A stretch of DNA of 20,174 bases from positions 1-20,174 of the forward strand of contig JBFMGO010000110.1 in the NCBI GenBank assembly GCA_040752695.1, written 5' to 3'. This DNA comes from a bacterium. Lineage in GTDB: Bacteria > SZUA-182 > DTGQ01. A program made the position numbers and the translations under genes. Each line of letters opens with the position of its first letter. The stretch's first letter is position 1. Below are positions 2,403 to 19,950 of the stretch, piece by piece. The notes below the pieces were generated by a model that was not told the origin of the DNA, searched no databases, and saw only the letters and a list, made by a program, of their open reading frames with translations.

Positions 2403-5303
2403 ATGATCATAGAAAAATTCACCGTGAAAGCCCAGGATGCCATTGAACGTGCTTGCCGTCTGGCGGTTAAAAGGGGGCACCAGTATGTAACGCCCTGGCA
2501 TCTTCTCTTCAGTATGATCGAACAGGGGGAGGGTCCGGTCCGCCGTTTTTTATCTGAATCCGGTGCCGATTTTAAAACCCTCGGCGCACGGTTGGAGAGC
2601 CGCCTCCTCACTCAGACGAGGGCACTTGCGTCTGCCCAGCAGACACCCATTAACCGTGACCTGGAAAGAATTTTTATTCATGCCCAGGAGGCTGCGTCGA
2701 GAGCGGAGGATACCTCTATCGGGATCAGTCATATCCTGCTCGGAATGCTCGAAGCCGAGGAGATCGCTTCAGCCCTTACGGAAGCAGGGGTTCGAAAGAG
2801 CGAGTTGATTACCCGTCTTAAGGAGGCACCGAAAAGCCTGGACAGAGGAGGAGAAAATGCTGCCGGAGAATTCGAATACCTGACCAGGTATGCCACTGAT
2901 CTTACGGAGCGTGCACGGCAGGGAGAATTGGACCCTGTGATCGGCCGGGATGCTGAAATCCGGCTGACCATACAGGTCTTAAGCCGCAGGTTGAAAAATA
3001 ACCCTGTCATTATCGGGGAGCCTGGTGTCGGAAAGACAGCTATTGTGGAAGGGCTGGCTCAAAGGATCGTTCAGGGGGATGTACCTGGTAATCTCTTGCA
3101 TACATCCATCCTCAGCCTCGATATGGGTCTGTTGCTGGCCGGTGCAAAATACCGCGGCGAATTCGAAGAGCGGTTCAAACAGGTCCTCCAGGAGGTAACC
3201 GATGCCGGGAATGTCATTTTATTTATTGATGAGATTCATACGCTGATCGGAGCAGGCGGAGCGGAAGGGTCCCAGGATGCGGCCAACCTTCTCAAACCGG
3301 CACTTTCAAGGGGGAAAATCCGCTGTGTAGGTACCACTACCCTTTCGGAATATCGAAAGCACATTGAAAAAGACGGGGCACTGATGCGCCGCTTCCAATC
3401 GATCATGATTGAAGAGCCGGACATTGATGAAACCATTTTCATCCTGCGCGGGGTGAAAGAGAAATACGAGGCACATCACGGCCTGCGCATCCTCGATAGA
3501 TCCCTGGTGGCAGCAGCAAGGCTGTCGTACCGTTATATTACGGACCGGTTCCTTCCTGACAAAGCCATCGATCTCATCGACCAGACAGCGGCATCGGTGC
3601 GGATCGGCCAGTCTTCCAGGCCGGAAGAAATCGAGGCCATAGATCGTCGGATCGTTCATATGGAGGTCGAAATCAGGGCTCTTGAAAATGAACAGGATAA
3701 GTACACCGCTCACGGAGGCGAGGAAGAGGGTGCATCCATGAAGGATGAGAAGAGCAGGGAGCGGCTTATTTTCCTGAAGCGGGAACTGGAACCCCTGAAG
3801 GAAAAGAGCAGGGAGCTTACACAGAAGTGGCAGAGAGAAAAACAGGCCGTCAATGCGGTTTGCGAAGCCAAAAGAGCACTGGAGCAAGCAAGGAGGGAAA
3901 TGGAAACGAAGGTCCGGGAAGAGGATTTTGCACGGGTTGCCGAGCTGCAATATAAAATCATTCCCGGATGCGAAAAGGTTCTGGCTGAGTATGCAGATGT
4001 TTTCGATGGTGCTGACAGCCTGGAGACAAGGCACAGCGTTGAGATAAGGCACGGGGTTGAGGCAAGGCACAGCGTTTCCCTGCCCGTCAAGGATGCCATA
4101 GATGATCACGATGTTGCGGCTTCGGTTTCACGCTTGACCGGTATTCCTGTCTCCCGGATGCTGGCACCGGAAAAAGACCGCCTGCTTCACCTTGAGGACC
4201 ATTTGCGGCAGAGGGTGGTAGGTCAGGACGAGGCACTCACGGCAATAGCCAAAGCTGTTCGCAGGTCCAGGGCACAGGTACAGGACCCCAACCGGCCCAT
4301 AGCCTCTTTCCTCCTACTTGGTCCATCGGGTGTGGGGAAAACGGAATCAGCCAAGGCGCTGGCTGATTTTCTGTTCGACGACGAGGCAGCCCTTGTGCGG
4401 ATCGATATGAGCGAGTTTATGGAAAAGCATTCCGCAGCCCGGTTGATAGGCGCGCCTCCAGGCTATGTCGGTTATGAGGAGGGTGGTGTCCTGACCAACA
4501 GGGTCAGGCAAAAACCATACTGCGTTCTTCTGTTTGACGAGGTGGAAAAGGGACATCCGGATGTCTTTAACCTTTTCCTGCAATTCCTCGACGATGGGCG
4601 GCTGACCGACAGCCAGGGTCAGGCCGTGAATTTCAAGAATACCATCATCATGATGACCTCAAACCTCGGCTCGGCCTCCATTGAGCCTGTCGAGACCTGC
4701 GAGCACGTGCAGAAAATAAACGAGGAGATTATGCAGGCAGTGCGGTTACATTTTCGTCCGGAATTTTTGAACCGCCTCGACGATATCCTCATTTTCCGGC
4801 AGCTCACCCGGAAGATCATGACGACCATTGTTGACATTCAGCTTAACCGGTTGAAAAACCTGCTGCAAGAGCGCGATATTCAACTTGAGGTAACAGATGA
4901 GGTCAAAGAACTTTTAGCCAAAGAGGGTTTTAACCCGATTTATGGCGCACGGCCTCTGAAAAGAGTTATTCAGAGTCGGATTCAGGATTCCCTGGCTGAA
5001 AAAATTATCAAGGGAACTATTCAAGAAGGCGACACTGTGGTGGCTGAAGCAGCCGGTGATGAATTGATCATCATCAGAAAGATTGCTGATACTGCCATGG
5101 GACGCGGCAGAGCGCGTCCTTCCATCATCGGGTCATCGGCTCTTAAGGTGTCAGGGTCATCATCCCTTCAAGAGAGCCTTCCAGACGGCCTTGCGGGCCT
5201 TCAAAAGGGTCTTCCAGACAGCCTTCCAGAGGGCTTTCAAGACAACCGATCCCCTGGCGATGAGTGTCATCATGAGATCTCCAATTATAATGACAAAGGG
5301 TAA
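2403..5303 (+). CDS. clpB: ClpB-type AAA+ ATPase in the T6SS locus (probable sheath-recycling TssH function)
   Basis: ClpB-like start [14 protein letters not shown] (GGAG at 2391-2394 favours ATG 2403 over GTG 2397). NBD1: [16 protein letters not shown], pore loop GAKYRG. Middle domain: [17 protein letters not shown]...[11 protein letters not shown]2: [30 protein letters not shown]. Confidence 0.9.
4023..4076 (+). repeat. In-frame 18-nt tandem repeat x3 inside clpB ([18 protein letters not shown])
   Basis: gagacaaggcacagcgtt / gagataaggcacggggtt / gaggcaaggcacagcgtt. Confidence 0.9.
5166..5246 (+). repeat. Degenerate 12-nt tandem array in the clpB C-terminal tail
   Basis: cttcaagagagc cttccagacggc cttgcgggc cttcaaaagggt cttccagacagc cttccagagggc tttcaagacaac. 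Confidence 0.75.
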
Positions 5304-5310
5304 AACGGCT

Positions 5311-8300
5311 ATGCAGTCCCTGAAAAAAATTTCTGCGGTCTTTCCATTTTTAAAGAACCTCTTGGACATGTCGGCTCGTGTGTATTGGCTCTATTGGGTG
5401 GCAGGACAGGCTCTCCTTTTGATCGGCCTGGCGGTGTTTTTCATTATGCGCCGCCGCTCAAAAAGAGCCGCTGCTCAAGGCCAGGAAACAAAACAGAATG
5501 TATTGACCAAAAGTTGTCTGGTCAGAATATGGAAAGAATTCCTGCATGATCTTCCCGCAAAATTCCGCCGCTCTATCGTCCTCTATCAGCCCTTTGTGGT
5601 TCTTGGCGAATCCGGGGCAGGCAAAAGCCTTTTAATAGACAACTTCACGGACTGGCAGGGTTACGCCAATAAATTTTATCCAAGTCATACTGCACATCCG
5701 CTTTTGCAGATTTATCTTGGCTCAAAGCTCATAGTGCAGGAAATCTCCGCATCGCTTTTAACTGATAACTCAAAACAGGCACGGGTGGCTCTTTTGAAAC
5801 TCTGGAAGCCGCTCTTTAAAGAGAAAGAACCCATTGTGGTCATTGTTCTCGACGGGAAGGCTTTACAGGCCGGTACCCTGGAACCGTTAAAAAAACTGGC
5901 CCAGATGATACGGGGAAAAATCAACCTTATCACTCTGATTCGCCAAGAGCCGGTGAAAGTATGCATTTGCCTGACTCACATGGACCAAATAGAGGGGTTT
6001 ACCGAGTTTTCCGGTTTTCTGCGGCATAATAATATCCCTTTGCGGCTTGAATTTGCCTCAAAAAAGGATGTCCAGAATGGGGAGACCTGCCTGGAAGCCT
6101 ATGAAAATTATCTGAGTCTTGCCCTGACAACCTTATCTGCCCCGGCCTATATGAAAATCATATCCTTCTTCCGTTCCGCTCCTGATCTTTTTGCAAGCGT
6201 ATCCGCGTTTACAAAGATACTGCAAAGCTCCGATCCATTGCTGCCCGAGCCTGAAATCATCCGCTTAAGTCTGGCCTCTTGGAAGGGGGAGGGAGAAAGG
6301 AGCGATGCTTCCAATCCGTTTGCACTGCCTGCTTCCATGACAGCAATCAAATACGATCCCCTTCTCAAACATAAACAGGCTGCTGCTGCCGTATTCATGA
6401 TCGGGCTGATCTATCTGGGTTCAGGGTATCTTTACGAACGTCATCTTCTCGTCCAGAATGAGCGGATTCTGGATACCGTAGAAGCGCATCAGCCCACTCT
6501 CGGAGGCCGGCATGACGAAAAGATCCATCAGCTCCTTCTCGACTACAACGAAAAAGTGCACCCTCTTCAGGCCGTTTTTCCCGATTTCTTTGCCCGTGTC
6601 AAAGAAGAGAGCCGCCAGCGTTTGCTGGAAAATATCCGCGAACTCTATTTGCTCCCCGACCTGAAACAGGGCGCATTTGATGAACCCGAAAGATCGCTCT
6701 ATCTTCTTGGCCTGATCTACGCCTCCCGCTCCGATGATCTGGGCAGGTTTGTTCTCGAACATACGTCGCAATGGAAGGAAAGGTTCAACTTTCCCGAACA
6801 GTTCATCAAAGATTATATCAAATACAATAACGGCCCACGGGAGATGGCCTTCTCCTCTCCCCTTATCATCCCGCCCCCGTCCCTCAACCTCCATCGATGG
6901 ACCATGTTCTTCCACAAAGCCGTCAATGCTTCCAAGAAGTCTTTTCTCACCCGTTCCGAATTGCAGTCGCTGCAAAACGAGGGCGCCCTGATTATGGGGG
7001 AGATCGGGGAATACGAACAGTATGATTTCAACATAAAGATGTGCGAGCTTTTAAAAGAGTATGTCCCCTCCATCTCACTGACTCTCGAAGCCCTTAAGGA
7101 AGCGGACCTGAAGGACAGGAAACAAAAGTCCTTACAGGAATTTCTCGCCTTTTTTCAAGACCTGGACATAGACTATCCCGAAGTAAGGGGCTTGACTATC
7201 CATCAATTTCTGGAAAACATCAAAACCATGAATGCGCTCAAAAGAAATAAGTCGGAAATCTGGAGTCAGGAGTTAAATGCGGGGAGTCAGGAGCCAGGGA
7301 ACGGAAGTCAGGAGGAGGGAGTCAGGAACGAGGAGAAAAAATTTCAATTCACCTTCGATGATGAAGAGTTCACCTTCAGTGCAAAGAAATGGAACGAGCT
7401 GATCCATTGCAGCCGGATGACCCTGTTCATGCAGGACTTCATGAATAAAAATATGATGCATACCGGCGGACGGCTGTTCTTTCAGGGAGAAAGTACCTTT
7501 CCCGATCTTTTGATGAATCCGGGCAACGATGGTCACCTCTTTTTCACCGGCAAGGGGAGGGTGGAGGGCATCTATACCAGGGCAGCCTTTGATGACGCCA
7601 TCAGGCCGGTCCTGGCCGAATTGCCTGATCTATTGGGAAAACTGCCCGCTGCCAAAGAGGTAAAGATGCTTTTTTCAGACTTTATTTCCAGGGAGGTCAA
7701 AGCCTACGCCGAAGAATATATCTTCGCCTACCGCACCTACTACCAGCAGTTCGAGATAAGTTCCTCATCTTTAAGGGGGCTGCAACTCGTATTGAATCAG
7801 ATTCAGCAACCGTTATCACCGTTTCAGGATTTTCTCCTGACCATCAAGGAAAACACCAGTCTGAACCTCGAAGATAGTATCGATTCAGGCGCAGGCCGTT
7901 ATCTTCAGACATTTGCCTTGAAACTGCACACCTTCGATTTTATCCAGAATGTGATGCTGGAACGAAAGGGAATATTTCCCGAACTCGAAAAATACAAAGC
8001 CATTTTAGCTCAGATGCAGGAGGATCTGAAGGGTGATAAACCCTTCGTGGCCAAGAACGAAATGGATGATTCGAACGAATTGAAACGCCAGTTGTCACCG
8101 TTGGGGCGGATCAGTCTGGCCATTTTTCGAGGAGAAGAGGATTCTTATCTCAACATGGTGGAGATGTGGTTGAAGAATGTCGAGGTGGGCCCTGAATGGC
8201 AGGATATCTTTCGGGCACCGGTCCGCGATGCCTATCGTCTGGGACTGAATGAAGTGCAGGCCATGGTGGATAAGGTGTCGAAAGAGCTCTGGACATCGGA

Positions 8301-9027
8301 TGTCCAGCCGGTCTTGCGCAAATTCCCCTTTAACCGGGAAGCAGCCAACGAAGTTACCCTGGCAGAGATGGAAAATTTGGTCCATCCGAAGGGCAAGTTC
8401 TGGAAAACCTTTCAAAAATACCTGGCGCCTGTTTGTCTGAAAACGGGCAATACCTGGATTCAGCGAGCGGCCAATAGCAGTCAGGACATCGGGACAGTGC
8501 AATTGCCACAGAACATGCTGAACACAGTCAATGAAATCCTGCGGATCGGCAGAACATTGTGGGATGAGAACGGGATTCCGAAGCCTTTGAAATTTTCCAT
8601 CAAGCCCTTTCTCCTTCCTTCGAGTGAGACAGCCGGCCCGGTTGCAGTGCTCTCATACCTGAGATCAGGCAAATCCTCAGTTTTCGGGTTTAATCAGCAG
8701 CCCGCCTGGCATGAGTTCGAGTTTGAATGGTGGAAAGAGCAAAGTGCCATTGTAGGGGTAGAATACACAACTTCCATTAATTCCCGAAAAAAATACAGGG
8801 CCATCACCGCACCGGAATCCTGCTGGAGCCTGTACCAGCTTCTGCGTATGGCTGATACGGCGGGTGAGAACCTGTTTATGTGGCGGATCAAAGGAGCGAC
8901 TTTCGGCTACAGTGCAAATCTGTTTACTGTTAAGTTTGCCATGAAAACCGATCCATGGTCTTTATTCCAATTAGCGCAAGAGAAACCTCCAGGATCAATG
9001 GCCCAGAAAGAAAATACAAAGCTATAG
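5311..9027 (+). CDS. tssM: T6SS membrane complex protein TssM/IcmF (PdpB-like)
   Basis: N-terminal TM helix, Walker A GESGAGKS, IcmF-like motif VCICLTHMDQIEGFTEF, second TM (AAAAVFMIGLIYLGSGYLY), and a TssM C-terminal signature (RKFPFN...VHPKGKFWKTFQKYLAP...WSLYQLL). Start set at ATG 5311 just after the clpB stop; the track start at 5083 overlaps clpB. Confidence 0.85.
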   Translation: MQSLKKISAVFPFLKNLLDMSARVYWLYWVAGQALLLIGLAVFFIMRRRSKRAAAQGQETKQNVLTKSCLVRIWKEFLHDLPAKFRRSIVLYQPFVVLGESGAGKSLLIDNFTDWQGYANKFYPSHTAHPLLQIYLGSKLIVQEISASLLTDNSKQARVALLKLWKPLFKEKEPIVVIVLDGKALQAGTLEPLKKLAQMIRGKINLITLIRQEPVKVCICLTHMDQIEGFTEFSGFLRHNNIPLRLEFASKKDVQNGETCLEAYENYLSLALTTLSAPAYMKIISFFRSAPDLFASVSAFTKILQSSDPLLPEPEIIRLSLASWKGEGERSDASNPFALPASMTAIKYDPLLKHKQAAAAVFMIGLIYLGSGYLYERHLLVQNERILDTVEAHQPTLGGRHDEKIHQLLLDYNEKVHPLQAVFPDFFARVKEESRQRLLENIRELYLLPDLKQGAFDEPERSLYLLGLIYASRSDDLGRFVLEHTSQWKERFNFPEQFIKDYIKYNNGPREMAFSSPLIIPPPSLNLHRWTMFFHKAVNASKKSFLTRSELQSLQNEGALIMGEIGEYEQYDFNIKMCELLKEYVPSISLTLEALKEADLKDRKQKSLQEFLAFFQDLDIDYPEVRGLTIHQFLENIKTMNALKRNKSEIWSQELNAGSQEPGNGSQEEGVRNEEKKFQFTFDDEEFTFSAKKWNELIHCSRMTLFMQDFMNKNMMHTGGRLFFQGESTFPDLLMNPGNDGHLFFTGKGRVEGIYTRAAFDDAIRPVLAELPDLLGKLPAAKEVKMLFSDFISREVKAYAEEYIFAYRTYYQQFEISSSSLRGLQLVLNQIQQPLSPFQDFLLTIKENTSLNLEDSIDSGAGRYLQTFALKLHTFDFIQNVMLERKGIFPELEKYKAILAQMQEDLKGDKPFVAKNEMDDSNELKRQLSPLGRISLAIFRGEEDSYLNMVEMWLKNVEVGPEWQDIFRAPVRDAYRLGLNEVQAMVDKVSKELWTSDVQPVLRKFPFNREAANEVTLAEMENLVHPKGKFWKTFQKYLAPVCLKTGNTWIQRAANSSQDIGTVQLPQNMLNTVNEILRIGRTLWDENGIPKPLKFSIKPFLLPSSETAGPVAVLSYLRSGKSSVFGFNQQPAWHEFEFEWWKEQSAIVGVEYTTSINSRKKYRAITAPESCWSLYQLLRMADTAGENLFMWRIKGATFGYSANLFTVKFAMKTDPWSLFQLAQEKPPGSMAQKENTKL
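7250..7333 (+). repeat. Heptamer (AGTCAGG-type) array of 12 units, in frame inside tssM
   Basis: agtcgga aatctgg agtcagg agttaaa tgcgggg agtcagg agccagg gaacgga agtcagg aggaggg agtcagg aacgagg = 84 nt = 28 codons. Confidence 0.7.
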
Positions 9028-9039
9028 GAGTCATGCAAC

Positions 9040-9588
9040 ATGTACTGTATCGGCATAGTGAGGAACTTGCGGATGAGTTTTCAGAGAAGCTTTCAGAGAA
9101 GCTTTCAAAGGAGTTTTCAAAGGAGTTTTCAGAGAAGCTTTCAGACGAAATTGCCTGATGTAAAAGAAAACCAAACGAGGAACAAGAAGGCATTACTTCT
9201 TCTGTGTCTTTGTAGTTTCATGGTGGCGGCGGGCTGTAGACATATGACCCTTACCCTGAAAGCCGATTATAACGCTAACAGAGGACTGCCTGTTTATGTT
9301 TTAGTTCGTTCCGTCAACGAGAAAGCCTTCCTTACGGAAAGTTACCAGGATATCAGCACCATGATTTTTAAAGATCCTCCTGATCCAAGCGTCCTTCATT
9401 ATCAGGTGCTCCTGCCAGGCCAGAAACAAAAGATAAAGATAGAAAAGCCGAAAAACGCCTCGGTGGGTGTTTACGGGCTGTTTACCGAACCGGATGAAGA
9501 GTGGAAAATGCTCTTGCCCCAACCCTTTCGCTACAGATACCTCCTCACCCTGGAGAGGAATAGAATGGTGGAGACCACCCATGATTGA
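9040..9588 (+). CDS. tssJ: T6SS outer-membrane lipoprotein TssJ (IglE-like) with an unusual N-terminal SFQR-repeat extension
   Basis: AGGAG at 9026-9030, 9 nt before ATG 9040. h-region ALLLLCLCSFMV, lipobox VAAG|C66, TssJ-like pattern N..P.YVLVR....F..ESY..., LLPGQ, VGVYGLF, W. Directly follows tssM. Confidence 0.75.
   Translation: MYCIGIVRNLRMSFQRSFQRSFQRSFQRSFQRSFQTKLPDVKENQTRNKKALLLLCLCSFMVAAGCRHMTLTLKADYNANRGLPVYVLVRSVNEKAFLTESYQDISTMIFKDPPDPSVLHYQVLLPGQKQKIKIEKPKNASVGVYGLFTEPDEEWKMLLPQPFRYRYLLTLERNRMVETTHD
9076..9147 (+). repeat. 12-nt tandem repeat x6 encoding (SFQR)5-SFQT
   Basis: agttttcagaga agctttcagaga agctttcaaagg agttttcaaagg agttttcagaga agctttcagacg. Confidence 0.95.
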
Positions 9589-11467: not shown

Positions 11468-11518
11468 AAGTCCGCTCATCACCCGTTAATCGCGTGTTAT
11501 TAAAGAAGGAGAAAAAAC

Positions 11519-12052
11519 ATGGCAGTCCAGGATCAGATTCCTAAATCACGGCTTACCCTCAGATACAGAACGGAGGTCAATGGCCAGCCCGAAGATATAG
11601 TTCTTCCGCTTCGGCTTCTGGTTACGGGCGACTTCTCACAGGGAAGTTCCAAAGACAGCACATTCGATCTGGAGGAAAGGCGAATTCGCAGTGCGGATGG
11701 GAAGAATACGGATGCGATCATGAAAGATATGGGTATGTCCCTGAAATTCACCGTACCGAACAGGATCGATCCGGAAAAAGAGGAGGATCTGCAAGTCGAA
11801 ATTCCCATCGACAGTATGAAATCCTTTTCACCGGACCAGGTAGCGAAGAATATCCCGAAACTGAAAGGCCTGCTCATGTTGAAAGAACTCCTGGAGGAGG
11901 TTCTCTCGAATGTTGATAACAGAAAAGATTTCCGCAATCTTCTGGGAGAATTATTCAGTAACGAAGAAGCTCTGTCAAAAATGGTAGCGGAGCTGAAGGG
12001 CTTTGAAAGCTTCAAGTTACCCTCACCCCGGAATGACTCCCGGAATGATTGA
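11519..12052 (+). CDS. tssB: T6SS contractile sheath small subunit TssB (VipA/IglA)
   Basis: IPKSRLTLRY...LPLRLLVTGDFS...LEERR...SMKSFSPDQVAKNIPKL motifs; strong SD (AAGGAG); paired with tssC. Confidence 0.93.
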   Translation: MAVQDQIPKSRLTLRYRTEVNGQPEDIVLPLRLLVTGDFSQGSSKDSTFDLEERRIRSADGKNTDAIMKDMGMSLKFTVPNRIDPEKEEDLQVEIPIDSMKSFSPDQVAKNIPKLKGLLMLKELLEEVLSNVDNRKDFRNLLGELFSNEEALSKMVAELKGFESFKLPSPRNDSRND

Positions 12053-12123
12053 ATAAATTTGATTTAATATATAATATTATTTAAATATTAATATAATCCA
12101 TAATTGGAGGAGAAACGCACATT

Positions 12124-13632
12124 ATGGCCGACGCAACCCAACAAGCGGTGAAAACCGAGGGGAAAACACAAGAGCTGAGTCTGAAACGCTTCTTGTCAAG
12201 CATGCGCCTCTCTACCGAGATCAATGAGCCGGTCCCGATCATTCAGGATGATCTTCGGGTGGTGAAAGAGGATGTCAGTGATGAGGACCGCTTCATTTCC
12301 GGTATGGCTGCTTTGTTACTCAACATTGATCCAGCCGTAAAACGCCTCGACAAGGGAATGGTGCTGGAAGTGATCGGGCGGATAGATGAGATGGTGAATG
12401 ATCAGCTCAACGAGATTATTCACCATGAAAAATTCAAGCGAATGGAGTCCAACTGGCGGTCCCTGCATCAGTTGATTTTAACTACCAATTTCAAAGCGAA
12501 CATTATGATCGACATCCTGGATGTGAGCAAGGATGAGCTCTACGAGGATTTCGAAAGCAATGCCGTGGATATCCTGGGCAGTGCCTTTTTCAAGAAGGTC
12601 TATGTGGCCGAGTACGACCAATTCGGCGGCAAGCCATACGGCGCCATAGCAGGGCTGTATGAGTTCGATCACACACCGGGAGATGAATTCTGGCTCCGGA
12701 TTATGGGAAAAATCTCCGCTGCCAGTCATGCGCCATTCATCGGTGCGGTATCGAGCAGATTTTTCGGCTGCAACAGCATCGAGGAACTGGCAGCCATCAA
12801 GGATCTTGAAGGGCTTATGAACCAGCCCAAATACGGCTCATGGAACAAACTCCGGGATTCGGAAGAGGCTGCCTATATCGGTCTGGCGCTGCCCAAGATC
12901 ATTATTCGCCTTCCTTACGATCCGGATACCAATCCCTGTAATAATCTATCCTTCAGAGAGAAAGTACGGGGTGACAGCAACGAGGATTACCTCTGGGGAA
13001 GTGCTGTGATTCCCTTTGCCCAGAACATGATCCGCTCCTTTGAGCAGTCCGGCTGGTGCCAGTATCTTCGCGGGCCGAAAGGCGGGGGGCTGGTAGCCGG
13101 GCTGCCGGTGCATATGTTCAATATGCGGGGGGAAGACGAGATAAAGATTCCCGTTGAGATGGCCATTCCGGATTATCGCGAGCTGGAATTTGCCAATGCC
13201 GGATTCATGCCCCTCGTTTACCGCAAAGGCACGGCGGATGCCTGCTTTTTCAGTTGCCAGTCGCTCAAGAAGCCCAAGAAGTTCAAGGACCCGAAGGACT
13301 CGGAAAATTCCCAACTGGTAACCAACCTTTCTTATACCTTTTCCATTACACGCATTGCCCATTATGTCAAGTGTATTATGCGGGATAACATCGGCAGTTC
13401 GGCAGATGCTCCTTATATTAAAAATACCCTGCAAAATTGGATATTTCAATATGTTACCACGGTTGTGGACCCGGATGATCTCACACTCCGTTACTATCCA
13501 TTCAAGGCCGCTTCAGTCACGGTGGTTGAGCGGGAGGGTATGATAGGCTGGTATGATTGCTCCATATCCATACTGCCGCATATCCAGTTTGAAGGAATGG
13601 ATGTAGAACTCAAACTGGATGCACGTCTTTAA
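12124..13632 (+). CDS. tssC: T6SS contractile sheath large subunit TssC (VipB/IglB)
   Basis: QLNEIIHHEKFKRMESNWRSL, EYDQFGGKPY, SHAPFI, RLPY, YLWG, GWCQYLRGPKGGGLV, SITRIAHYVKCIMRDNIGS, PHIQFEG; GGAGG SD. Confidence 0.96.
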   Translation: MADATQQAVKTEGKTQELSLKRFLSSMRLSTEINEPVPIIQDDLRVVKEDVSDEDRFISGMAALLLNIDPAVKRLDKGMVLEVIGRIDEMVNDQLNEIIHHEKFKRMESNWRSLHQLILTTNFKANIMIDILDVSKDELYEDFESNAVDILGSAFFKKVYVAEYDQFGGKPYGAIAGLYEFDHTPGDEFWLRIMGKISAASHAPFIGAVSSRFFGCNSIEELAAIKDLEGLMNQPKYGSWNKLRDSEEAAYIGLALPKIIIRLPYDPDTNPCNNLSFREKVRGDSNEDYLWGSAVIPFAQNMIRSFEQSGWCQYLRGPKGGGLVAGLPVHMFNMRGEDEIKIPVEMAIPDYRELEFANAGFMPLVYRKGTADACFFSCQSLKKPKKFKDPKDSENSQLVTNLSYTFSITRIAHYVKCIMRDNIGSSADAPYIKNTLQNWIFQYVTTVVDPDDLTLRYYPFKAASVTVVEREGMIGWYDCSISILPHIQFEGMDVELKLDARL

Positions 13633-13669
13633 TGAAAAAACAATAACATAGAATAAGGAGGATAATACT

Positions 13670-14260
13670 ATGGCTGAGTTATCGTACAGTTGTAGTGTGT
13701 CTCAGGGATTTAATTTCGAAAAAGATCAACAACCTTTGGTCGGGCATATCAATACTCTTAAAATTGGTGACCAGGAGCTCAAGTCGGACCTTCAGTTGAC
13801 CGATCCTCTGGATGTTTCCAAAGTACCACTTTTAACCGTGTTTGGAGTAGTCAACTCCATTTACTGGGCAGGAGGCTATTCCGATCCGGTGCAGTTCAGT
13901 TGCCAGGTTTCCACAGCGAATAAAAACCTCCTGGCAACACTCCAGCATAAGAAACTGAGCAATACTGAAGTCATCTTCTCCTTTACGATCTATGACTACG
14001 ATCCCACTGCCAAGAAATACTACAAATGCTTTCATACAGATGGTAAGCCGCTGGAGGGCCTTATCTATAAGTCCGGCGGCAGCTTGGCCATGAACATGTA
14101 TACGGAGCAATCAATGGAGGTTCCCTCTCCGAAAAACTACACTTTTGCCCTTGGAGTCATGCCTAAGGATAAGGATGATATGGCCATACAAGTGGCGATA
14201 TCCGAAACCGACAAGTTCGCCAAGAAATGGGGCGTCGGAGTGGTGGCATCTAAAAAATAG
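13670..14260 (+). CDS. Probable T6SS inner tube protein, divergent Hcp / IglC-like
   Basis: 196-aa beta-rich protein between tssC and tssK, the iglC position in iglABCD. Very strong SD (TAAGGAGG) and a downstream hairpin suggest high expression. No recognisable canonical Hcp motifs. Confidence 0.6.
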   Translation: MAELSYSCSVSQGFNFEKDQQPLVGHINTLKIGDQELKSDLQLTDPLDVSKVPLLTVFGVVNSIYWAGGYSDPVQFSCQVSTANKNLLATLQHKKLSNTEVIFSFTIYDYDPTAKKYYKCFHTDGKPLEGLIYKSGGSLAMNMYTEQSMEVPSPKNYTFALGVMPKDKDDMAIQVAISETDKFAKKWGVGVVASKK

Positions 14261-14287
14261 GTATGTTCGATCGTTCACAGGAAAACC

Positions 14288-14331
14288 GGGCGGGCAAAGT
14301 CAGGAGCAGGAAGAATACTCCTGACCCGCCC
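14288..14331 (+). terminator. GC-rich stem-loop after the tube gene (terminator or mRNA stabiliser)
   Basis: GGGCGG...GTCAGGAG pairs with CTCCTGAC-CCGCCC; only a weak U-tract follows. Confidence 0.5.
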
Positions 14332-14387
14332 CCATCTTGATTAAAGGTTATCATAGTTATCAAAAGATAATAAAGCAGAAAAAAGCT

Positions 14388-15635
14388 ATGGCAGAAAAAC
14401 TTGCTCGTGTTCGATGGGAAATGGGACAGACACTCCTTCCTGAGCACTTCCGTGCTCAGGAAGAAGCGCTGATCACTGATACGACCTTGCGGTTTCGTAC
14501 CAGGGGCCTCCCCGGCTATGGAATCGCGGAGCTGAAATGGAACGATACACTCCTTCGGGAAGGTATCCTCATGGCTCATTCCATGACTGTCATTTTGCCT
14601 TCTGGGCTTATGCTGAATGTGCCTGGGAATGCCGGAGTGTCTTCCTTTAACCTGAATGTTCCCGGCATGGTCAGTTTGCCGGTATATCTGCATGTGGTTA
14701 ACCCGCTTTCGCAGGATAACGGCGGAGATGGCCAGAATGCGACAGGAGAAGATCCTATCGTGAGGGTAGTTTACCAATTGATTCTCTCCTCCGATCAGGC
14801 TTATCCCGGTGCTCTGGAAACAATGAAAATTGCCGAATTCATAAAAGATCCTCAAGGGGTCTGGCAGCAGTCAGGAAGCTTTATTCCCCCTCTGCTCCAA
14901 GCAGGCACTTCACCCTACTTAAGATCCGAATTTGCCGAACTGACTCATCTTCTGGAGCTTTTTCACTATAAGTTGACCCAGGAGGTTGCTGCCAGTTACT
15001 TGAGCGGTGAGGGACTGTTCAGCGCCAAGCAGTGTCTGAAAGCTGTCTACCACATCGAGAGGTTTCTGGCTAATGTTTGTGGTCAGATTCATATCCATCC
15101 GTACTATGTCTATGAGGCATTGAAAACCTTCTACACCGAGGTCTGCTTTTTCAGGAATACGACACCGCAAAATACTGCTGATCCGTATAACCATGACCAG
15201 CTTGCTCCCTGCTTTCAGAAAATCCTGGAACCCTTAAAAGAGCAGATGCAACTTGTCCAGGCCAGGTCCCCTTATCGTCCCTTTGAACTCAAGGATGGCA
15301 TGTACCGCATAACCTTCCCTCCAGAGCTCAGACAGGCCAAAGAGATTTACTTCCTCATTCAAAAAGATCATGTAAATATGAAAATTTCCATAGAAGATCT
15401 CAAACTGGCCAGCCTTTCCAGGTTATCTTTGGTGCACAGGCTGGCGCTCCAGGGTATACCTTTAAAAAAAATCGATCGTCCGCCATTCCAGCATTCCTTT
15501 GGTCCGGAAGTCGATTTCTACCTGGCAGCTTATGGAGAGGAAATGGACTATGCTATCCGCGAACTGTCTGTGGCGTTTTATCATCAGGACCAATTTAAGG
15601 AAATGAACTTTTATTTCTACTGGCGGCTGGAATGA
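14388..15635 (+). CDS. tssK: T6SS baseplate protein TssK (IglD-like)
   Basis: N-terminal motif RVRWEMGQTLLPEHFRAQE, plus YGIAELKW, FIPPLL, HPYYVYEAL, YNHDQLAPCF and ALQGIPL, matching the TssK pattern. Start set at ATG 14388. Confidence 0.85.
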   Translation: MAEKLARVRWEMGQTLLPEHFRAQEEALITDTTLRFRTRGLPGYGIAELKWNDTLLREGILMAHSMTVILPSGLMLNVPGNAGVSSFNLNVPGMVSLPVYLHVVNPLSQDNGGDGQNATGEDPIVRVVYQLILSSDQAYPGALETMKIAEFIKDPQGVWQQSGSFIPPLLQAGTSPYLRSEFAELTHLLELFHYKLTQEVAASYLSGEGLFSAKQCLKAVYHIERFLANVCGQIHIHPYYVYEALKTFYTEVCFFRNTTPQNTADPYNHDQLAPCFQKILEPLKEQMQLVQARSPYRPFELKDGMYRITFPPELRQAKEIYFLIQKDHVNMKISIEDLKLASLSRLSLVHRLALQGIPLKKIDRPPFQHSFGPEVDFYLAAYGEEMDYAIRELSVAFYHQDQFKEMNFYFYWRLE

Positions 15636-15745
15636 GGAAGGATGAATGAGGGCGGATGCCGGGTACGGAATACTGGATGTTGATGGATGCGGGATACGGG
15701 TGCAGGGGAGGCCCGGCTAGGCATTACAGGCTATGAGATAAGACC

Positions 15746-15785
15746 ATGAGATACGGCTATATGATATGAGATACGGCTATATGAT
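15746..15785 (+). repeat. Perfect 20-nt tandem duplication in the tssK-tssE spacer
   Basis: atgagatacggctatatgat x2, flanked by partial ATGAGAT copies. Confidence 0.9.
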
Positions 15786-15813
15786 AAGACTAATGAGATG
15801 CAGGAGGGTCCGG

Positions 15814-16188
15814 ATGGCTTTTTTTAACAAATTTACCTATGGCTCCAGGGCAAAAGAGGAAAATGAAGAGCTTCTGGCTATTGTGGAAAATCTGAATAAT
15901 ATTCTCAACATCAAAAAAAATTATGGCTCATTCCTGACCGACCTTGGCATCCGCGACATGAATGAATACACCTCCAGGGACCGTATTACCAAGGCTGTGA
16001 TGGAGGAGGTGAAACAGAATATCGAACGGTTCGAGCCGAGGGTGAGGATTATCGGTATCCAGGAAGAACAGGGCGATAATCCTTTTATGATGTCATTCAG
16101 TATTGAATGCATGATCAGGCAAAATTCGAAATCTTTAAATATGATATTCAATTCTGTTCTCAACAACTTTCGGATAGCTAATCCATAA
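15814..16188 (+). CDS. tssE: T6SS baseplate protein TssE (gp25-like)
   Basis: 124 aa, 'IVENLNNILN...DLGIRDM...IERFEPRV'; SD AGGAGG before ATG 15814. Confidence 0.85.
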   Translation: MAFFNKFTYGSRAKEENEELLAIVENLNNILNIKKNYGSFLTDLGIRDMNEYTSRDRITKAVMEEVKQNIERFEPRVRIIGIQEEQGDNPFMMSFSIECMIRQNSKSLNMIFNSVLNNFRIANP

Positions 16189-16191
16189 AGC

Positions 16192-16321
16192 CAGTTATCA
16201 GTTGCAAGGCATCAATTGCATGCCATCATCAGGTATCAGTTGCACAAGCCATCAGGTATCGGATATCAGCTATCAGGTATCAGTAAAAAACTGAGAGCTG
16301 GAAACTCATAACTGATAACAG
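16192..16321. repeat. Heptamer (TATCAGN) array followed by inverted (NCTGATA-like) copies
   Basis: cagttatcagtt...ggtatcagtt...atcaggtatcggatatcagctatcaggtatcagt, then an A-run, then actgagagctggaaactcataactgataac. Confidence 0.75.
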
Positions 16322-16342
16322 TCCTTACACCGGAGAGAGAAA

Positions 16343-17971
16343 ATGTTTACCGATACTTTAGAACTGAAATTCACCTTAACCGCTGGTGGAAAAAATTTTA
16401 AGATACCAGCCGGGGATATCAAAGCCTTCACTATGGATCTTCATCCATACGGCTTTACCTGCCAGGTGAATTTTTGGGTATCCAATGAACAGAAAGCCGA
16501 TGACTTGTTTCCCTTCTTTGTAAGACCCGACCTGATAAGGGCGAATCTGGAGGTGGTTTCCTATTACAATCCCATGCATCTGGCTCTTGAAGCCTTGAAG
16601 CTTCAGGGGCTGGTAATGCAAAAATCCATTCTCAACGAGCGCACTATCGAAAATGTCAATCTGCAGCAAGACCCTGTCATTTACCGCTACTACCAGATCA
16701 CCTTTGCCGATCCTGCCTCTGTTTTATGGCGGCAGCATTTTCCCTGTGATTTACTGACCGACAAGACGGTGAAAGACCTTTTGGATGCCCACAAGGGAAG
16801 CGAAGTAACCTTGAAATACGATTGGGACGCTCTGGATAAGCAATTTGCCATTAATACGCTGGCCTTGGGAGTAGAGGCAAATCAAGCCAGTTTCTATGAC
16901 TTTGTCCTCTGGTTCGTATCCACTATGGATGGTGTCCTGACCTATGACTGCAACGAGAATACCTATACCCTTTCAAAAACCAAGAAGGAGGATGGTCAAC
17001 CGGCTGAGCTGGCCGAGCTGGATGTTGAGAGTTTGCAGATAGAGTTTCCAGAAACGATCAGGCATAGTGCCGATTTACTCAATGCCTGCTCGGAAGATCC
17101 AAGGCGCGAGCCTGTCGAGCAGTCCCAGGCTGTCAGCGGTGTCCGGCATGATTACATTGGCAGATTCGTAATCTCTTCCGATTTCGCAGACCGCAAAAAC
17201 CTGGAAAGCCAGAGGCTCAAGGTCCGTGAGCATGAGCTTTACGCTGTTTTTCGCAATTTCCCGCTCATTCCCTACCGGCCCGGCTGCCTGATCGAGCTTG
17301 CAAAAGAGGGCTGGAGCAAGAAGCTTTTCGCGCAAGGCAAGGTCTACCGGATACGGGACATTTCCTTTGCGGCCAATGCTGCGCAAAGAGAGGTTACTGC
17401 CGGTCACAACCTGCCGTATGGCAAATTCGATATCGATATGAAGTCGCGGCTCGAGCTGAAAAGTGAAAAATGGACTGACCTTCCCCAATTCCAATTACCC
17501 CTGTTTCCTCTGTGCGTAGAGGGGAGGATCAAGAGTGAAATAGGCGAAGACAACGAAAACACCTATCAGATCTACCAGGACCGGGAGACATCGCTGGACC
17601 AGTACCGGGTGATTATTCCACTTTTCGATAACCAGGAAGTGGTTGTGCCGTTTGCACCCGATTTCCTGATGGGGCACTTTTACTTTCCTGTTTATAAAAA
17701 CGCACGGGTCCTGGTGGCGATCGGGTTTCACTCGGCCCGGATCGAGCAATTCCTTGACTGGGGTCCGGGGGCCAGACTTCCCATGGACACTCAGGGAAAT
17801 CATATCTTCCTGGGGAAATGGAAAGATGCCAAAAACCAGACTTCCATCAACCATGTGTATGTGGATGAAAAACCGGTGCTCAATGTAAAGCGGACCTCGG
17901 AGGTAGATACTCAGATGGTTAAATTGGAAGAAGGCAGGCTGGTTATGGAAGTAAAAGAAGAGGAACAGTAG
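16343..17971 (+). CDS. VgrG-like baseplate hub (gp27-like + OB-fold) without the long gp5 beta-helix; PdpA-like role
   Basis: 542 aa after tssE. 'YQITFADPASVLW', 'SFYDFVLW' and 'PGCLIEL' align by eye with gp27-like VgrG segments; the OB-fold-like 'GHFYFPVYKNARVLVAI' is near the C-terminus. GGAG SD. Confidence 0.65.
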   Translation: MFTDTLELKFTLTAGGKNFKIPAGDIKAFTMDLHPYGFTCQVNFWVSNEQKADDLFPFFVRPDLIRANLEVVSYYNPMHLALEALKLQGLVMQKSILNERTIENVNLQQDPVIYRYYQITFADPASVLWRQHFPCDLLTDKTVKDLLDAHKGSEVTLKYDWDALDKQFAINTLALGVEANQASFYDFVLWFVSTMDGVLTYDCNENTYTLSKTKKEDGQPAELAELDVESLQIEFPETIRHSADLLNACSEDPRREPVEQSQAVSGVRHDYIGRFVISSDFADRKNLESQRLKVREHELYAVFRNFPLIPYRPGCLIELAKEGWSKKLFAQGKVYRIRDISFAANAAQREVTAGHNLPYGKFDIDMKSRLELKSEKWTDLPQFQLPLFPLCVEGRIKSEIGEDNENTYQIYQDRETSLDQYRVIIPLFDNQEVVVPFAPDFLMGHFYFPVYKNARVLVAIGFHSARIEQFLDWGPGARLPMDTQGNHIFLGKWKDAKNQTSINHVYVDEKPVLNVKRTSEVDTQMVKLEEGRLVMEVKEEEQ

Positions 17972-17989
17972 GAAAAGGTATCAGTTTTA

Positions 17990-19245
17990 GGGATCTCCAG
18001 AAAAATAGTCGCTTATATATGAGAGATGACATGCTGTTAACAAATAGGCACAAAAGGGCAAAGGCACAGAGTTTTTTATCTTTTTTGTACCTCTGAGCCT
18101 TTTTAAGGAAGTTGACTATCTGATATGAATGATAAATATAATAAAATAAAATACATATATGGACTTTGATTTTAGACTCAAATTTTATCCAAGGTCCATA
18201 TATATATCTATATACAATGTCTTACTACCAAACGACACATAGATAAAGGAGGTCAAAATGCCCGTCATCTGTCAACAACTTATCCCAGCCAATGCAGGCT
18301 TAGCCACTTACAATGTTGCCAAGGAACTTGCACGTCAGACAGTAGCCCAATTTGGTGCTGTTCGTTGGATAGGTGTTGGAATTGCGGGTGCTTCTTGCTG
18401 TGCTGCCCTTGCCATAAATCCTGCACCGGCGGCTTTTTTTCCTGCAGGAAATCCCTTGATGGGTTTTCTTCCTCCCCCCGCAGGGGTGGGAGTCATTTCG
18501 GTACCTAATTTTGGGGTTCCAGCATTACCTTACGCAATTGTTTATGGAAATTCCCAGTTGGCTCCTGGCGGATTGGCGCTAGGTCCTCTCGGAGGACATG
18601 CTGAACGAGCTGCGCTTACAGCTTCAGTTGCAGCGGGGATGCCCCTTCCCCTTTATTTATTACCAGCAGGAGGTCACGCCGTATTGTTTGTAGAGCTTCA
18701 TCCATGTCCTGGTTGTCTGACTTGGTTAAATGGAGGAGGTGGTGGTGTTGGAAACCCTTATAATGGAATTATTAATACAGGAGGTGCTACAACCTTAGAT
18801 GTATGGTGGAAGTGGCCACATCCCGCTGGAGTTGGGCAAATGAACATGTTCCACCAGCAAGGGTTGGCTGCTCAATTAGCGCAAATTAATGGGCCTACGT
18901 GGTAAGGAATGGTGATTAAGGAGGGAACCTGTTGCACATAAAAATGTTGCACATAAAAATAGGGGAAAATTTTCTGTAAAATTTGATATTTTGGGGATCA
19001 GAAATCACTTTAGCAGAGGAGATCCCCGATGTTGTAATACCATTCGCAAGTAGTGGAGTTTCGGAAAAGACTCCACCGTATATTTACTTACAGATTATAT
19101 AACTCAATTTGGACTTGAAAAAAAGAGTGCAAAAAGTAAATTTTATTAAGGTATTTATATTAAATACCTTGAATTTTATCGAATTTTCTAGTTATCGGAC
19201 AGTCTCAATTACTTCCCTTGGGTACACTAATTTCTGGGAGATTCC
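17990..19245. mobile_element. Putative non-autonomous cargo cassette (1256 bp) with terminal inverted repeats and a TTA target duplication
   Basis: Left end GGGATCTCCAGAAAAATAGT (17990-18009); reverse complement of the right end (19226-19245) is GGAATCTCCCAGAAATTAGT, 15/20 identical ungapped. TTA at 17987-17989 and 19246-19248. AT-rich non-coding interior, no transposase ORF. Confidence 0.6.
18258..18905 (+). CDS. Zinc-dependent nucleotide/nucleic-acid deaminase-superfamily protein (orphan, candidate effector)
   Basis: H114-A115-E116 and LFVELH-P149-C150-x-x-C153 are the deaminase Zn/catalytic motifs. Strong SD (AAGGAGGT). A/T-ending codons are common, unlike in the neighbouring genes. Confidence 0.7.
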   Translation: MPVICQQLIPANAGLATYNVAKELARQTVAQFGAVRWIGVGIAGASCCAALAINPAPAAFFPAGNPLMGFLPPPAGVGVISVPNFGVPALPYAIVYGNSQLAPGGLALGPLGGHAERAALTASVAAGMPLPLYLLPAGGHAVLFVELHPCPGCLTWLNGGGGGVGNPYNGIINTGGATTLDVWWKWPHPAGVGQMNMFHQQGLAAQLAQINGPTW

Positions 19246-19350
19246 TTAGTTATCAGCTATCAGTTATCTGTAAAAAAAGAAAAATAATAACAGAAAAAAA
19301 TAGTAACTTTTTAATTGATAACTTCTTTATATGAAAGACTGATTTTAATC

Positions 19351-19902
19351 ATGAGCAAACTTGTTTGCCGTATAGAACTCGATAAAGACAAAGGGATCAT
19401 CCTGACCGTTGAGAACAAGGACGGCAAGATCACCCAGACCGCTGTCATGAATGGTGAATCGATCACCATCACCAGTAAGGGAGAGCAGGACACCAGTACC
19501 ATTATCCAAAAACCGGACAGCATCGCCATGAAATGCAAAACCTTTACTCTGGAAGCCGAGACTATAACCTGCACATCGACCAAAGATACGCTCCATAAGA
19601 GCGATCAAAAATTTACTATCCAGAGCACCGGCGATATGACCCTGAAATCCAGCGCAAAGCTGACCGAAGAGGCGACAAGCGATGTCACGGTATCCGGCAG
19701 TAACGTTGCCGTTTCAGCTACGGGCAATGCCGAACTTTCCGCGAGCAATACAACAATAAGTGCCAAGGCCAAGATGGAAGTGAAAGGTACCAGTCTGGAG
19801 CTGTCAGGTTCCGCCACAGCAAAAATGAAAGGCGGAGCTGCTACTGATGTGGAGGCTGGAGGAATAACGTCAATCAAGGGCGCTTTGATTAAGCTTAACT
19901 GA
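19351..19902 (+). CDS. Stand-alone short spike protein (gp5 C-terminal beta-helix; Francisella-type short VgrG)
   Basis: 183 aa of Ser/Thr/Lys-rich short beta-strand repeats ending in the typical spike-tip sequence ITSIKGALIKLN. Start set at ATG 19351. Confidence 0.75.
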   Translation: MSKLVCRIELDKDKGIILTVENKDGKITQTAVMNGESITITSKGEQDTSTIIQKPDSIAMKCKTFTLEAETITCTSTKDTLHKSDQKFTIQSTGDMTLKSSAKLTEEATSDVTVSGSNVAVSATGNAELSASNTTISAKAKMEVKGTSLELSGSATAKMKGGAATDVEAGGITSIKGALIKLN

Positions 19903-19950
19903 AGCGCTTTGATCGAGTTTAACTGAAGCGCTTTGATCAAGCTTAACTGG
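19879..19950 (+). repeat. 24-nt tandem repeat x3 spanning the spike stop codon
   Basis: ggcgctttgattaagcttaactga / agcgctttgatcgagtttaactga / agcgctttgatcaagcttaactgg. Confidence 0.95.

Follow-up and report, generated by a model that had tools for sequence, protein, structure and literature searches.

A probable Francisella-type relative among type VI secretion systems, with a ClpB-type ATPase of its own, in an apparently unrelated bacterium

The stretch of DNA dealt with here, the window, is an entire contig (JBFMGO010000110.1, here C110; 20,174 bp) of a bacterial draft genome of 6.05 Mb in 239 contigs (GC 48%), estimated to be 96.6% complete with 2.27% contamination. Between positions 2397 and 19902 it has twelve intact open reading frames (ORFs), all on the forward strand, of which eleven are core genes of a type VI secretion system (T6SS) and one is an insertion (Table 1). 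Start codons of several were refined from a listing of candidate starts. Scans with Pfam and NCBIfam (the latter with 15 proteins from the window and 14 from a second contig, C33) left three window ORFs, of 196, 542 and 215 aa, without a family at E<=0.01. GC content within the window ranges from 0.41 to 0.55, in keeping with the roughly balanced composition that a preliminary description, made from the letters alone, had remarked on.

A tblastn search, with a relative's downstream genes as queries, located the remainder of the system at the beginning of C33. The cluster part there has seven genes, six whole and TssF alone cut, next to housekeeping genes for NAD kinase, RecN and an M48 peptidase. 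The parts that the preliminary description had left to be sought downstream, namely DotU, an IglG/DUF4280-type PAAR-like protein, TssF, TssG and a TssA (the last as a TssA-like protein of the IglI family), are all present on it. C110 itself ends 272 bp past vgrG, inside a palindromic repeat reminiscent of a miniature inverted-repeat transposable element (MITE) or a repetitive extragenic palindrome (REP). Copies 97-98% identical are on contigs C69, C98 and C171, and hits, weaker copies included, fall in at least 20 other contigs (40 of 84 hit lines). Such a repeat is the probable reason why the assembly breaks off between vgrG and tssF. Elsewhere in the genome, contig C8 carries a second T6SS, which is canonical and has a ClpV, and contig C4 carries a separate ClpB.

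Table 1. Genes and other features of the two contig parts of the cluster (bit scores are followed by model cut-offs where given)
Feature	Contig	Position	Strand	Evidence or remark
ClpB-type AAA+ ATPase	C110	2397..5303	+	TIGR03346 1109.5 bits; TIGR03345 791.6 bits
TssM / PdpB-like inner-membrane subunit	C110	5311..9027 (alternative start 5290)	+	TIGR03348 E 3e-16
IglE-type outer-membrane lipoprotein (TssJ role)	C110	9040..9588	+	PF22361 IglE_N 98.4 bits (26)
ANL-superfamily-like protein	C110	9686..11467 (alternative start 9581)	+	PF00501 E 1.8e-6
TssB small sheath subunit	C110	11519..12052	+	TIGR03358 149.5 bits (97.25)
TssC large sheath subunit	C110	12124..13632	+	TIGR03355 508.8 bits, above cut-off
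IglC-type tube protein (predicted)	C110	13670..14260	+	predicted fold
TssK baseplate subunit	C110	14388..15635 (refined start)	+	TIGR03353 328.2 bits (100)
TssE, gp25-like baseplate subunit	C110	15814..16188 (refined start)	+	TIGR03357 55.4 bits (53.2); PF04965 34.5 bits
PdpA-type (gp27-like) hub, apart from spike	C110	16343..17971	+	predicted fold and profile
Deaminase-like protein, 215 aa	C110	18258..18905	+	HAE...PCPGC motif
Short gp5-needle-only VgrG, Francisella type	C110	19351..19902	+	PDB match 6u9e_B
Palindromic repeat, ~148 bp, contig end	C110	19982..20130	.	near-identical copies elsewhere in genome
TssF (IglH-like)	C33	from base 3, 5' end cut by contig start		Pfam 89.6 bits; canonical and IglH models matched
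DotU	C33			Pfam 77.7 bits
126-aa ORF between dotU and tssG	C33	2471-2851		no family; recurs in 20 loci
TssG (IglJ-like)	C33			Pfam 28.6 bits
IglI-family (TssA-like) protein	C33			NF041244 312.5 bits (100)
398-aa ORF directly upstream of the PAAR-like gene	C33	5293-6489		no family
DUF4280 PAAR-like protein, 128 aa	C33			PF14107 118 bits

The nineteen genes so distributed (eleven core and one inserted in the window, seven on C33) very probably make up a T6SS whose sheath shares a clade with that of the Francisella island, the type known as T6SS-ii, and which is predicted to act as a contractile injector recycled by a ClpB of its own. The case is carried by gene set and order, the split spike, the IglE-type lipoprotein, the IglI-family and DUF4280 proteins and the affinity of the ATPase to ClpB, together with a tube for which an IglC-like fold is modelled. 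Much of the layout had been read correctly at the outset: the TssM-like ORF is indeed followed by the lipoprotein gene in the place of tssJ, tssB, tssC, a tube gene matching no family, and tssK do form one block of intact forward-strand ORFs, and an evident tssE, a ClpB of the cluster's own and an ‘ACS-like’ gene are all present.

For both sheath subunits the best PDB match is from Francisella: TssB scores 92.8 bits with IglA against 77.4 with VipA, and TssC 425.6 bits with IglB against 370 with VipB. Francisella references were found by an IglI-family search of 400 sampled Gammaproteobacteria, in which 5 genomes were above the cut-off and 1 genome was unscored. One of them, G070, has the order pdpA-pdpB-iglE-vgrG-iglF-iglG-iglH-dotU-iglI-iglJ, then iglD-C-B-A on the opposite strand, and its IglB (1093.9 bits on 3j9o_B) and IglC (415 bits on 2qwu_A) are near-identical to the chains matched; because of this textbook order and near-identity it is taken as a genuine Francisella-island reference. 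Another, G268, has a G070-like island and a second one resembling the ‘Francisella novicida island’ (FNI). The window TssC is 55-62% identical to that of a marine type of relative (whose arrangement is dealt with below), 50-57% to the types found in genomes G147, G314 and G159, 48% to that of the FNI-like island, only 43% to island IglB and 33-41% to the ten canonical TssC of the same genomes.

Trees of TssC extend this. FastTree was run on 215 rows, to which the best 150 representatives of 50% clusters contributed 135 (the other 15 were fragments and were dropped), and gave a 100-row clade with support 100. Its members are both IglB rows of the Francisella island, the window family, the marine type and the islands of the FNI-like and G147 types; all 10 canonical locus rows are outside it. 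IQ-TREE (LG+C20+F+G4) on a chosen subset of 73 rows, for which 22 outside representatives were randomly drawn, gave a 41-row clade that includes both IglB rows, at 100/100 (UFBoot/SH-aLRT) on a stem of 0.76. The relationship to T6SS-ii put forward in the preliminary description is thereby upheld, and no nesting of TssC within a canonical T6SS-i subclade was seen, all 32 canonical rows being outside the clade. The window's own 11-row subclade has support 100/99. As a separate matter, many of the 50%-cluster representatives P0243-P0267 in the TssC clade measure 800-1300 aa, an extension of 300-860 aa preceding a C-terminal TssC domain; these may be fusions or gene-calling artefacts. The marine-type TssC has an N-terminal extension of ~130-160 aa.

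The 196-aa tube protein has no Hcp (TssD) profile match among Pfam and NCBIfam at E<=0.01, and none at E<=10 to PDB sequences. Its 209 homologues are of ~190 aa, and the best 120 of them are 54-83% identical, without a Pfam domain and, wherever a source names them, called ‘hypothetical protein’. An AlphaFold2 model from a 40-row alignment (pLDDT 79, pTM 0.78) has, with Foldseek against the PDB, a sole match at E<=0.001, to Francisella tularensis IglC (2qwu_A, E 2.1e-5, TM 0.65/0.62), and with VIA-align a Z of 15.3 to IglC (root-mean-square deviation 3.0 over 179 residues) as against 8.3 to the best Hcp. On this model the tube is predicted to be of IglC type, in place of Hcp. Its profile gives no hhalign signal with the 214-aa tube candidate of the FNI-like island. 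Additional copies of tube genes of this kind also occur: a second copy in a Syntrophales chromosome (L021) has no recognised T6SS neighbours, and in one Desulfobacterales metagenome genome an IglC-like tube gene is on five contigs (L056, L063-L066).

Of the 175 homologues of the 542-aa hub protein every one that has a name at source is a ‘hypothetical protein’, only 1 of the best 120 has a Pfam domain, and the search against PDB sequences gave a chance match only (E 0.15). The AlphaFold2 model (pLDDT 84, pTM 0.81) is more informative, the top three Foldseek matches being Francisella PdpA chains (E 2.8e-26 to 1.6e-24; 6u9e_A at E 2.8e-26, TM 0.65/0.61), followed by hubs of extracellular contractile injection systems (eCIS) and of VgrG. 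Profile comparison by hhalign with PdpA of G070 gave a probability of 90.8% and E 1.2e-6 over 209 columns. The last ORF, 195 aa as first called and 183 aa from its true start at 19351, has as its best PDB match the 189-residue Francisella VgrG 6u9e_B (E 2.2e-5), residues 26-179 aligning with 38-188 and so nearly the full length, and it hits the Francisella-type TssI model NF041249 with E 6.4e-7 and 29.5 bits, below the cut-off of 100. No Hcp or VgrG profile match was obtained for tube or hub in the Pfam and NCBIfam family scans, and the best structural matches of tube and hub are IglC and PdpA rather than standard components. With a PdpA-like hub and a last ORF matching the short Francisella VgrG, the spike is therefore split as it is in Francisella, into a PdpA-type hub and a separate gp5-only needle. 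This division had been anticipated; the part of the anticipation that fell concerns the ORF at 18258-18905, which is an inserted deaminase-like gene and not spike.

That insertion (17972-19350) is 1.38 kb long and AT-richer. In relatives hub and spike genes are <=284 bp apart or, in the marine type, kilobases apart; among those that keep the window gene order the gap is <=284 bp with the exception of one locus, L023. The inserted gene encodes a Gly/Ala/Pro-rich protein in whose translation the deaminase-type motif can be read, its match to the zinc site of dCMP_cyt_deam_1 is borderline (E 0.14), and a protein-atlas lead points to XOO_2897-type toxin deaminases (score 0.88, TM 0.51/0.69). No homologue was found among 126 loci, and no immunity candidate is evident, there being no ORF of at least 50 aa between the gene and vgrG. 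Judged from these features the protein is a candidate cargo or effector. The insertion in L023 (13949-17718) encodes two proteins, a Calx-beta/Ig-like one of the cell surface, 1044 aa in length, and an outer-membrane beta-barrel protein resembling OmpA. The idea that the hub-spike junction is a general hot spot for cargo was considered and rejected: insertions are confined to the window and L023, and that of L023 is not a toxin.

Of the envelope genes, that for the TssM-like protein has, apart from the match in Table 1, weak matches to IcmF_helical and IcmF-related models. The protein keeps a Walker A motif, GESGAGKS, whereas no G....GK[ST] motif was found in the two Francisella-type PdpB sequences checked. 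The lipoprotein encoded next to it has a lipobox (...VAAGC) and its best match is to IglE_N; it falls below the cut-offs both of the NCBIfam IglE model NF041245 (49.9 versus 75) and of T6SS-SciN/TssJ (23.9 versus 27). In-frame tandem repeats give ‘SFQR’-type peptides at the N-terminus of the IglE-like ORF and in the C-terminal tail of the ClpB-type protein, and short tandem repeats with units of 12 bp or 24 bp are present at gene junctions (5165-5243, 9079-9145 and 19880-19949). Upstream of the cluster, on the opposite strand, a 406-aa ORF (746-1966) has a weak match, in its N-terminal part only, to a PorV/PorQ family of outer-membrane proteins (NF033709, E 2.2e-10).

The AMP-binding match of the ANL-like (the ‘ACS-like’) protein is confined to its N-terminal part. 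A profile built from 19 homologues finds acetyl-CoA synthetases and adenylation domains among PDB entries (E 1.5e-11 to 1e-3), and since these matches cover mainly the N-terminal subdomain, the protein may be a non-catalytic relative. By BLAST homologous ORFs are present in 41 of 126 loci, in clusters of the Thermodesulfobacteriota type, where the gene is between those for the lipoprotein and TssB, and of the Methylobacter type, where it is at the cluster end. From this recurrence it appears to be a conserved component of both. A correspondence to IglF was ruled out (hhalign probability 0.6%).

The cluster ATPase was described from the beginning as of ClpB type, and both scores and phylogeny agree with this: it scores more highly with the ClpB model than with that for ClpV, though below the cut-off of both (884.95 for ClpV), and within the same genome its identity is 46.6% to the C4 ClpB and 36.9% to the C8 ClpV. 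In the ATPase tree the cluster enzymes of the window, Syntrophus and Methylobacter make up a clade (support 100) that branches among ClpBs, at a distance from the clade of ClpV. The window enzyme is 67% identical to its counterpart in Syntrophus buswellii and 62% to that of Methylobacter psychrophilus, each of which carries a separate ClpB that is ~50% identical to the window ATPase. In three genomes (P. rubra, S. buswellii and M. psychrophilus) this type is the sole TssC, and no ClpV above cut-off was found in any of them; P. rubra has a single ClpB and no cluster copy. In F. novicida contracted sheaths are, in the account available from PMC5481754, disassembled by the housekeeping ClpB. The cluster ATPase is predicted from these comparisons to be the sheath recycler, in the TssH role and dedicated to the cluster. 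In the Francisella-type genome G268 a ClpB follows immediately after a pdpC-like gene at the island end (L118, 9325-11904); it groups with the ClpB of G070, which is on a contig different from that of the G070 island.

The C33 proteins contribute in different ways. The IglI-family protein has weak similarity to TssA (ImpA_N 22.1, cut-off 26.9). TssF scores 24.7 bits with the IglH model (56 in a relative; cut-off 75), and in relatives TssF and TssG match canonical models and the Francisella IglH and IglJ models alike. The DUF4280 protein aligns with residues 63-173 of the 177 of Francisella IglG (32% identity, E 3e-14), with four cysteines aligned as read from the alignment, and scores 59.2 bits with the NCBIfam IglG model (cut-off 200). 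The 398-aa protein, for which no homologue was found in any fetched locus, is a candidate cargo from its position beside the PAAR-like gene. Of the proteins specific to the Francisella island (IglF, PdpC, PdpD, PdpE and AnmK), PdpE was sought throughout the genome with NF041242 and gave no match, and the NCBIfam scans yielded no further Francisella model, PdpC, PdpD and AnmK not having been sought individually.

Set against the Francisella island, the likenesses are the common sheath clade, the predicted tube fold, a PdpA-like hub gene apart from a short gp5-only VgrG, an IglE_N lipoprotein, an IglI-family protein, a DUF4280 cap with its aligned cysteines, and the pairing of a ClpB-type ATPase with the lack of a ClpV for the system, which is known here from gene content. 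The differences are also considerable. Besides the low identity of TssC to IglB and the Walker A motif of TssM, the TssK, TssE, TssF and TssG of the window system still pass canonical profile cut-offs, whereas the baseplate proteins of T6SS-ii (IglD, IglH, IglJ) have diverged past such profiles and no TssE is recognisable there; a 2018 table, as available in PMC5924787, has the Francisella counterparts of TssA, TssE, TssF and TssG as unidentified, and IglJ and IglH are stated in the part of PMC9600919 available to have no BLAST relatives outside Francisella. The hub is 542 aa, PdpA 820 aa. The PAAR-like protein lacks the N-terminal extension of IglG, a helical extension described as unique to IglG in what is available of PMC5014421. 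A ClpB paralogue belongs to the cluster itself, as does an ANL-like gene without IglF similarity, PdpE is unmatched, and the window genes are all on one strand, unlike the two divergent blocks in Francisella. The word ‘intermediate’, used in the preliminary description, is fair given the canonical-profile TssK, TssE, TssF and TssG and the Walker A motif.

A further comparison is offered by the FNI-like island and the G147, G314 and G159 islands, which share the TssC clade with the window. They encode TssM and DotU, a lipoprotein resembling IglE, a member of the IglI family and a short DUF4280 protein that has no N-terminal extension. They differ in gene order, and a cluster ClpB or ANL-like gene was not seen in the stretches fetched. 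FNI is described, in the portions of PMC5014421 and PMC9600919 available, as a putative T6SS, and judged by its content the FNI-like island here would be its equivalent.

In a scan for relatives limited to one genome per species, 98 stretches encode a relative of the tube protein and 80 loci were kept. With phylum taken from record titles, 43 of the 80 are from Thermodesulfobacteriota (Desulfobacterales, Syntrophales and others), 27 from Gammaproteobacteria and other Pseudomonadota (Methylococcales, Alteromonadales, Oceanospirillales, Kangiellales and others), six from Myxococcota, three from Bacillota (metagenome genomes, two on short contigs) and one from Gemmatimonadota, so that the lineage is widespread over several phyla. 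The window order from ClpB to beyond VgrG is kept in six of 16 mapped loci, and Methylobacter (one of the 16) has a rearranged version of it. In the second arrangement, that of the marine type (six of the 16, from five marine Gammaproteobacteria and Desulfoluna), the hub gene is after that for IglI and TssC has its N-terminal extension. The remaining three were uninterpretable, longest-ORF picking having taken antisense ORFs over tube or spike.

The host itself stands apart. RecN from C33 is 53-78% identical only to unclassified metagenome proteins, and <=43% to phylum-named proteins (Nitrospinota, KSB3, Tectomicrobia, Thermodesulfobacteriota), which bears out the earlier impression of a bacterium apparently unrelated to Francisella. 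Because TssC is 73-82% identical across Thermodesulfobacteriota and Methylobacter, as against such values for RecN, horizontal spread of the cluster fits the sequences.

Several points weigh against placing the system with that of Francisella, or narrow what the placement means, and are best taken together. By profile alone the tail looks ordinary, with TssB, TssC, TssK and TssE above canonical cut-offs, and every Francisella equivalog-level NCBIfam model was missed, those for IglE, TssI_Fran, IglG and IglH all being below their cut-offs. The likeness of the tube to IglC depends on a predicted model with a pLDDT of 79, and hhalign of its profile with Francisella IglC (probability 0.2%) gives no sequence-level signal. 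Branching inside the 41-row TssC clade is weak (71/38, 66/88, 71/96), and, for want of a true outgroup in the tree, the lineage could equally be sister to the Francisella island, be ancestor-like or include it. A cluster ClpB is missing in the marine gammaproteobacterial branch, so that only one sub-lineage has a ClpB dedicated to the cluster. Finally, we infer the adjacency of C110 and C33 from synteny with relatives, where TssF directly follows VgrG, and not from an overlap of the two sequences.

Some of these points would be accommodated if the locus were a divergent subclade of canonical T6SS-i, in which Hcp and VgrG had drifted past their profiles and the likeness to Francisella were due to convergence or to an artefact of modelling. 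The system shares its general architecture and predicted mechanism with canonical ones, TssB, TssC, TssK and TssE exceed canonical equivalog cut-offs, TssF, TssG and DotU were found by canonical Pfam models above their cut-offs, and an arbitrary rooting of the TssC tree on the second TssC of the genome leaves the clade nested among canonical rows. From such profile matches and nesting it follows that the boundary between i and ii is partly a matter of naming. Yet this explanation is unlikely. The stem that sets the clade with IglB apart from all 32 canonical rows is long, and tube fold, hub fold and profile, short spike, IglE_N lipoprotein, IglI-family protein, DUF4280 cap and ClpB-type ATPase all agree; with several independent parts pointing to Francisella, convergence has little to recommend it. 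Relative to canonical systems the lack of any Hcp or VgrG profile match, the split spike, a DUF4280 protein in the place of PAAR, and a ClpB-type rather than ClpV ATPase are also departures; the lipoprotein matches IglE_N, and the scores with SciN and ImpA_N are short of their cut-offs.

Even less credence is due to the notion of a decaying, non-functional relic, or of a chimera arising by mis-assembly or mis-binning of two organisms. The system is admittedly split over two contigs of a draft with the contamination estimate given above, carries an insertion at the hub-spike junction and, past vgrG, a repeat element, and pairs a TssC ~80% identical to Thermodesulfobacteriota proteins with the distant RecN. 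However, all 11 core ORFs in the window and six of the seven on C33 are whole, the cut in TssF being due to the contig start only; the C33 half adjoins housekeeping genes; order and content are as in complete clusters of finished genomes, such as that of Syntrophus buswellii; and high TssC identity across phyla is also found between Methylobacter and Thermodesulfobacteriota, which fits horizontal transfer rather than mis-binning. An eCIS or a T6SS-iv-like phage-tail-like particle in place of a membrane-anchored T6SS is hardly believable at all, for while the hub model matches eCIS/PVC/AFP hubs (E 1e-20 to 1e-16) and the short spike matches an Anabaena CIS spike protein (E 1.5e-4), the cluster has the membrane-complex genes for TssM, lipoprotein and DotU and also encodes a two-gene TssB/TssC sheath, TssK and an unfoldase, hallmarks of T6SS that are not known from eCIS.

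If the nineteen genes do specify a T6SS allied to that of Francisella, its working can be sketched. TssM, the IglE-type lipoprotein and DotU would form the envelope complex, and TssK, TssE, TssF and TssG a baseplate around a trimer of the PdpA-like hub. The trimer would carry the short VgrG needle, with the DUF4280 protein capping it. Rings of the IglC-like protein would polymerise within the TssB/TssC sheath, assisted by the IglI-family protein in a TssA-like role, and contraction would expel tube, spike and cargo, for which the deaminase-like protein by vgrG and the 398-aa protein by the PAAR-like gene are candidates. The contracted sheath would then be unfolded by the cluster ClpB, as it is by the housekeeping ClpB in Francisella.

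T6SS-ii has been regarded as a Francisella affair. A 2016 account, as available in PMC4793230, places all 30 systems in 18 Francisella genomes; confinement to Francisella is stated in the portions available of PMC8125069 (2021), PMC12955703 and PMC13584744 (August 2026); and several Francisella-island proteins are treated as being without counterparts outside the genus in those of PMC9600919 and PMC5924787. A 2026 survey, in the text available of PMC13098142, reports MacSyFinder calls of T6SS-ii in Francisella and one Dongshaea genome, and a TssC tree in which T6SS-ii is nested in T6SS-i. No prior description of the present lineage was found in the literature searched, from which most subscription journals fall outside, ‘FPI-like’ being used there only for Francisellaceae genomes. 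Given the existence of an NCBIfam ‘IglI family’ subfamily model, non-Francisella members of that family had already been seen by curators. The system described is a relative of T6SS-ii at the level of a T6SS class; its set of parts is mixed and less derived, and one branch has a ClpB paralogue of its own.

The balance tips slightly toward a broader proposal, that the T6SS of the Francisella island is an offshoot, pared down and adapted to hosts, of a large environmental class, members of which move between Thermodesulfobacteriota, Myxococcota and Gammaproteobacteria. An IglC tube, a split PdpA/VgrG spike, IglE, IglI and reliance on ClpB instead of ClpV would then be ancestral there; IglH would correspond to TssF and IglJ to TssG, IglI would be TssA-like, and TssE would have been lost.

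For surveys the practical consequence is that, if built on profiles of Hcp, VgrG and ClpV, they will overlook such systems in anaerobic sediment and marine bacteria or assign them to the wrong type. Harmless carriers exist that are partly cultured, among them Pseudoalteromonas rubra, Marinomonas spartinae, Aliikangiella coralliicola, Methylobacter psychrophilus, Desulfobotulus alkaliphilus and Syntrophus buswellii, which allows study of the architecture, for instance of how a ClpB-type unfoldase recognises the contracted sheath. Bridging sequences from the lineage are available for assigning orphan Francisella-island proteins to canonical roles. For the Francisella machine itself an evolutionary context is provided, in that the lineage likely holds its long-missing relatives.

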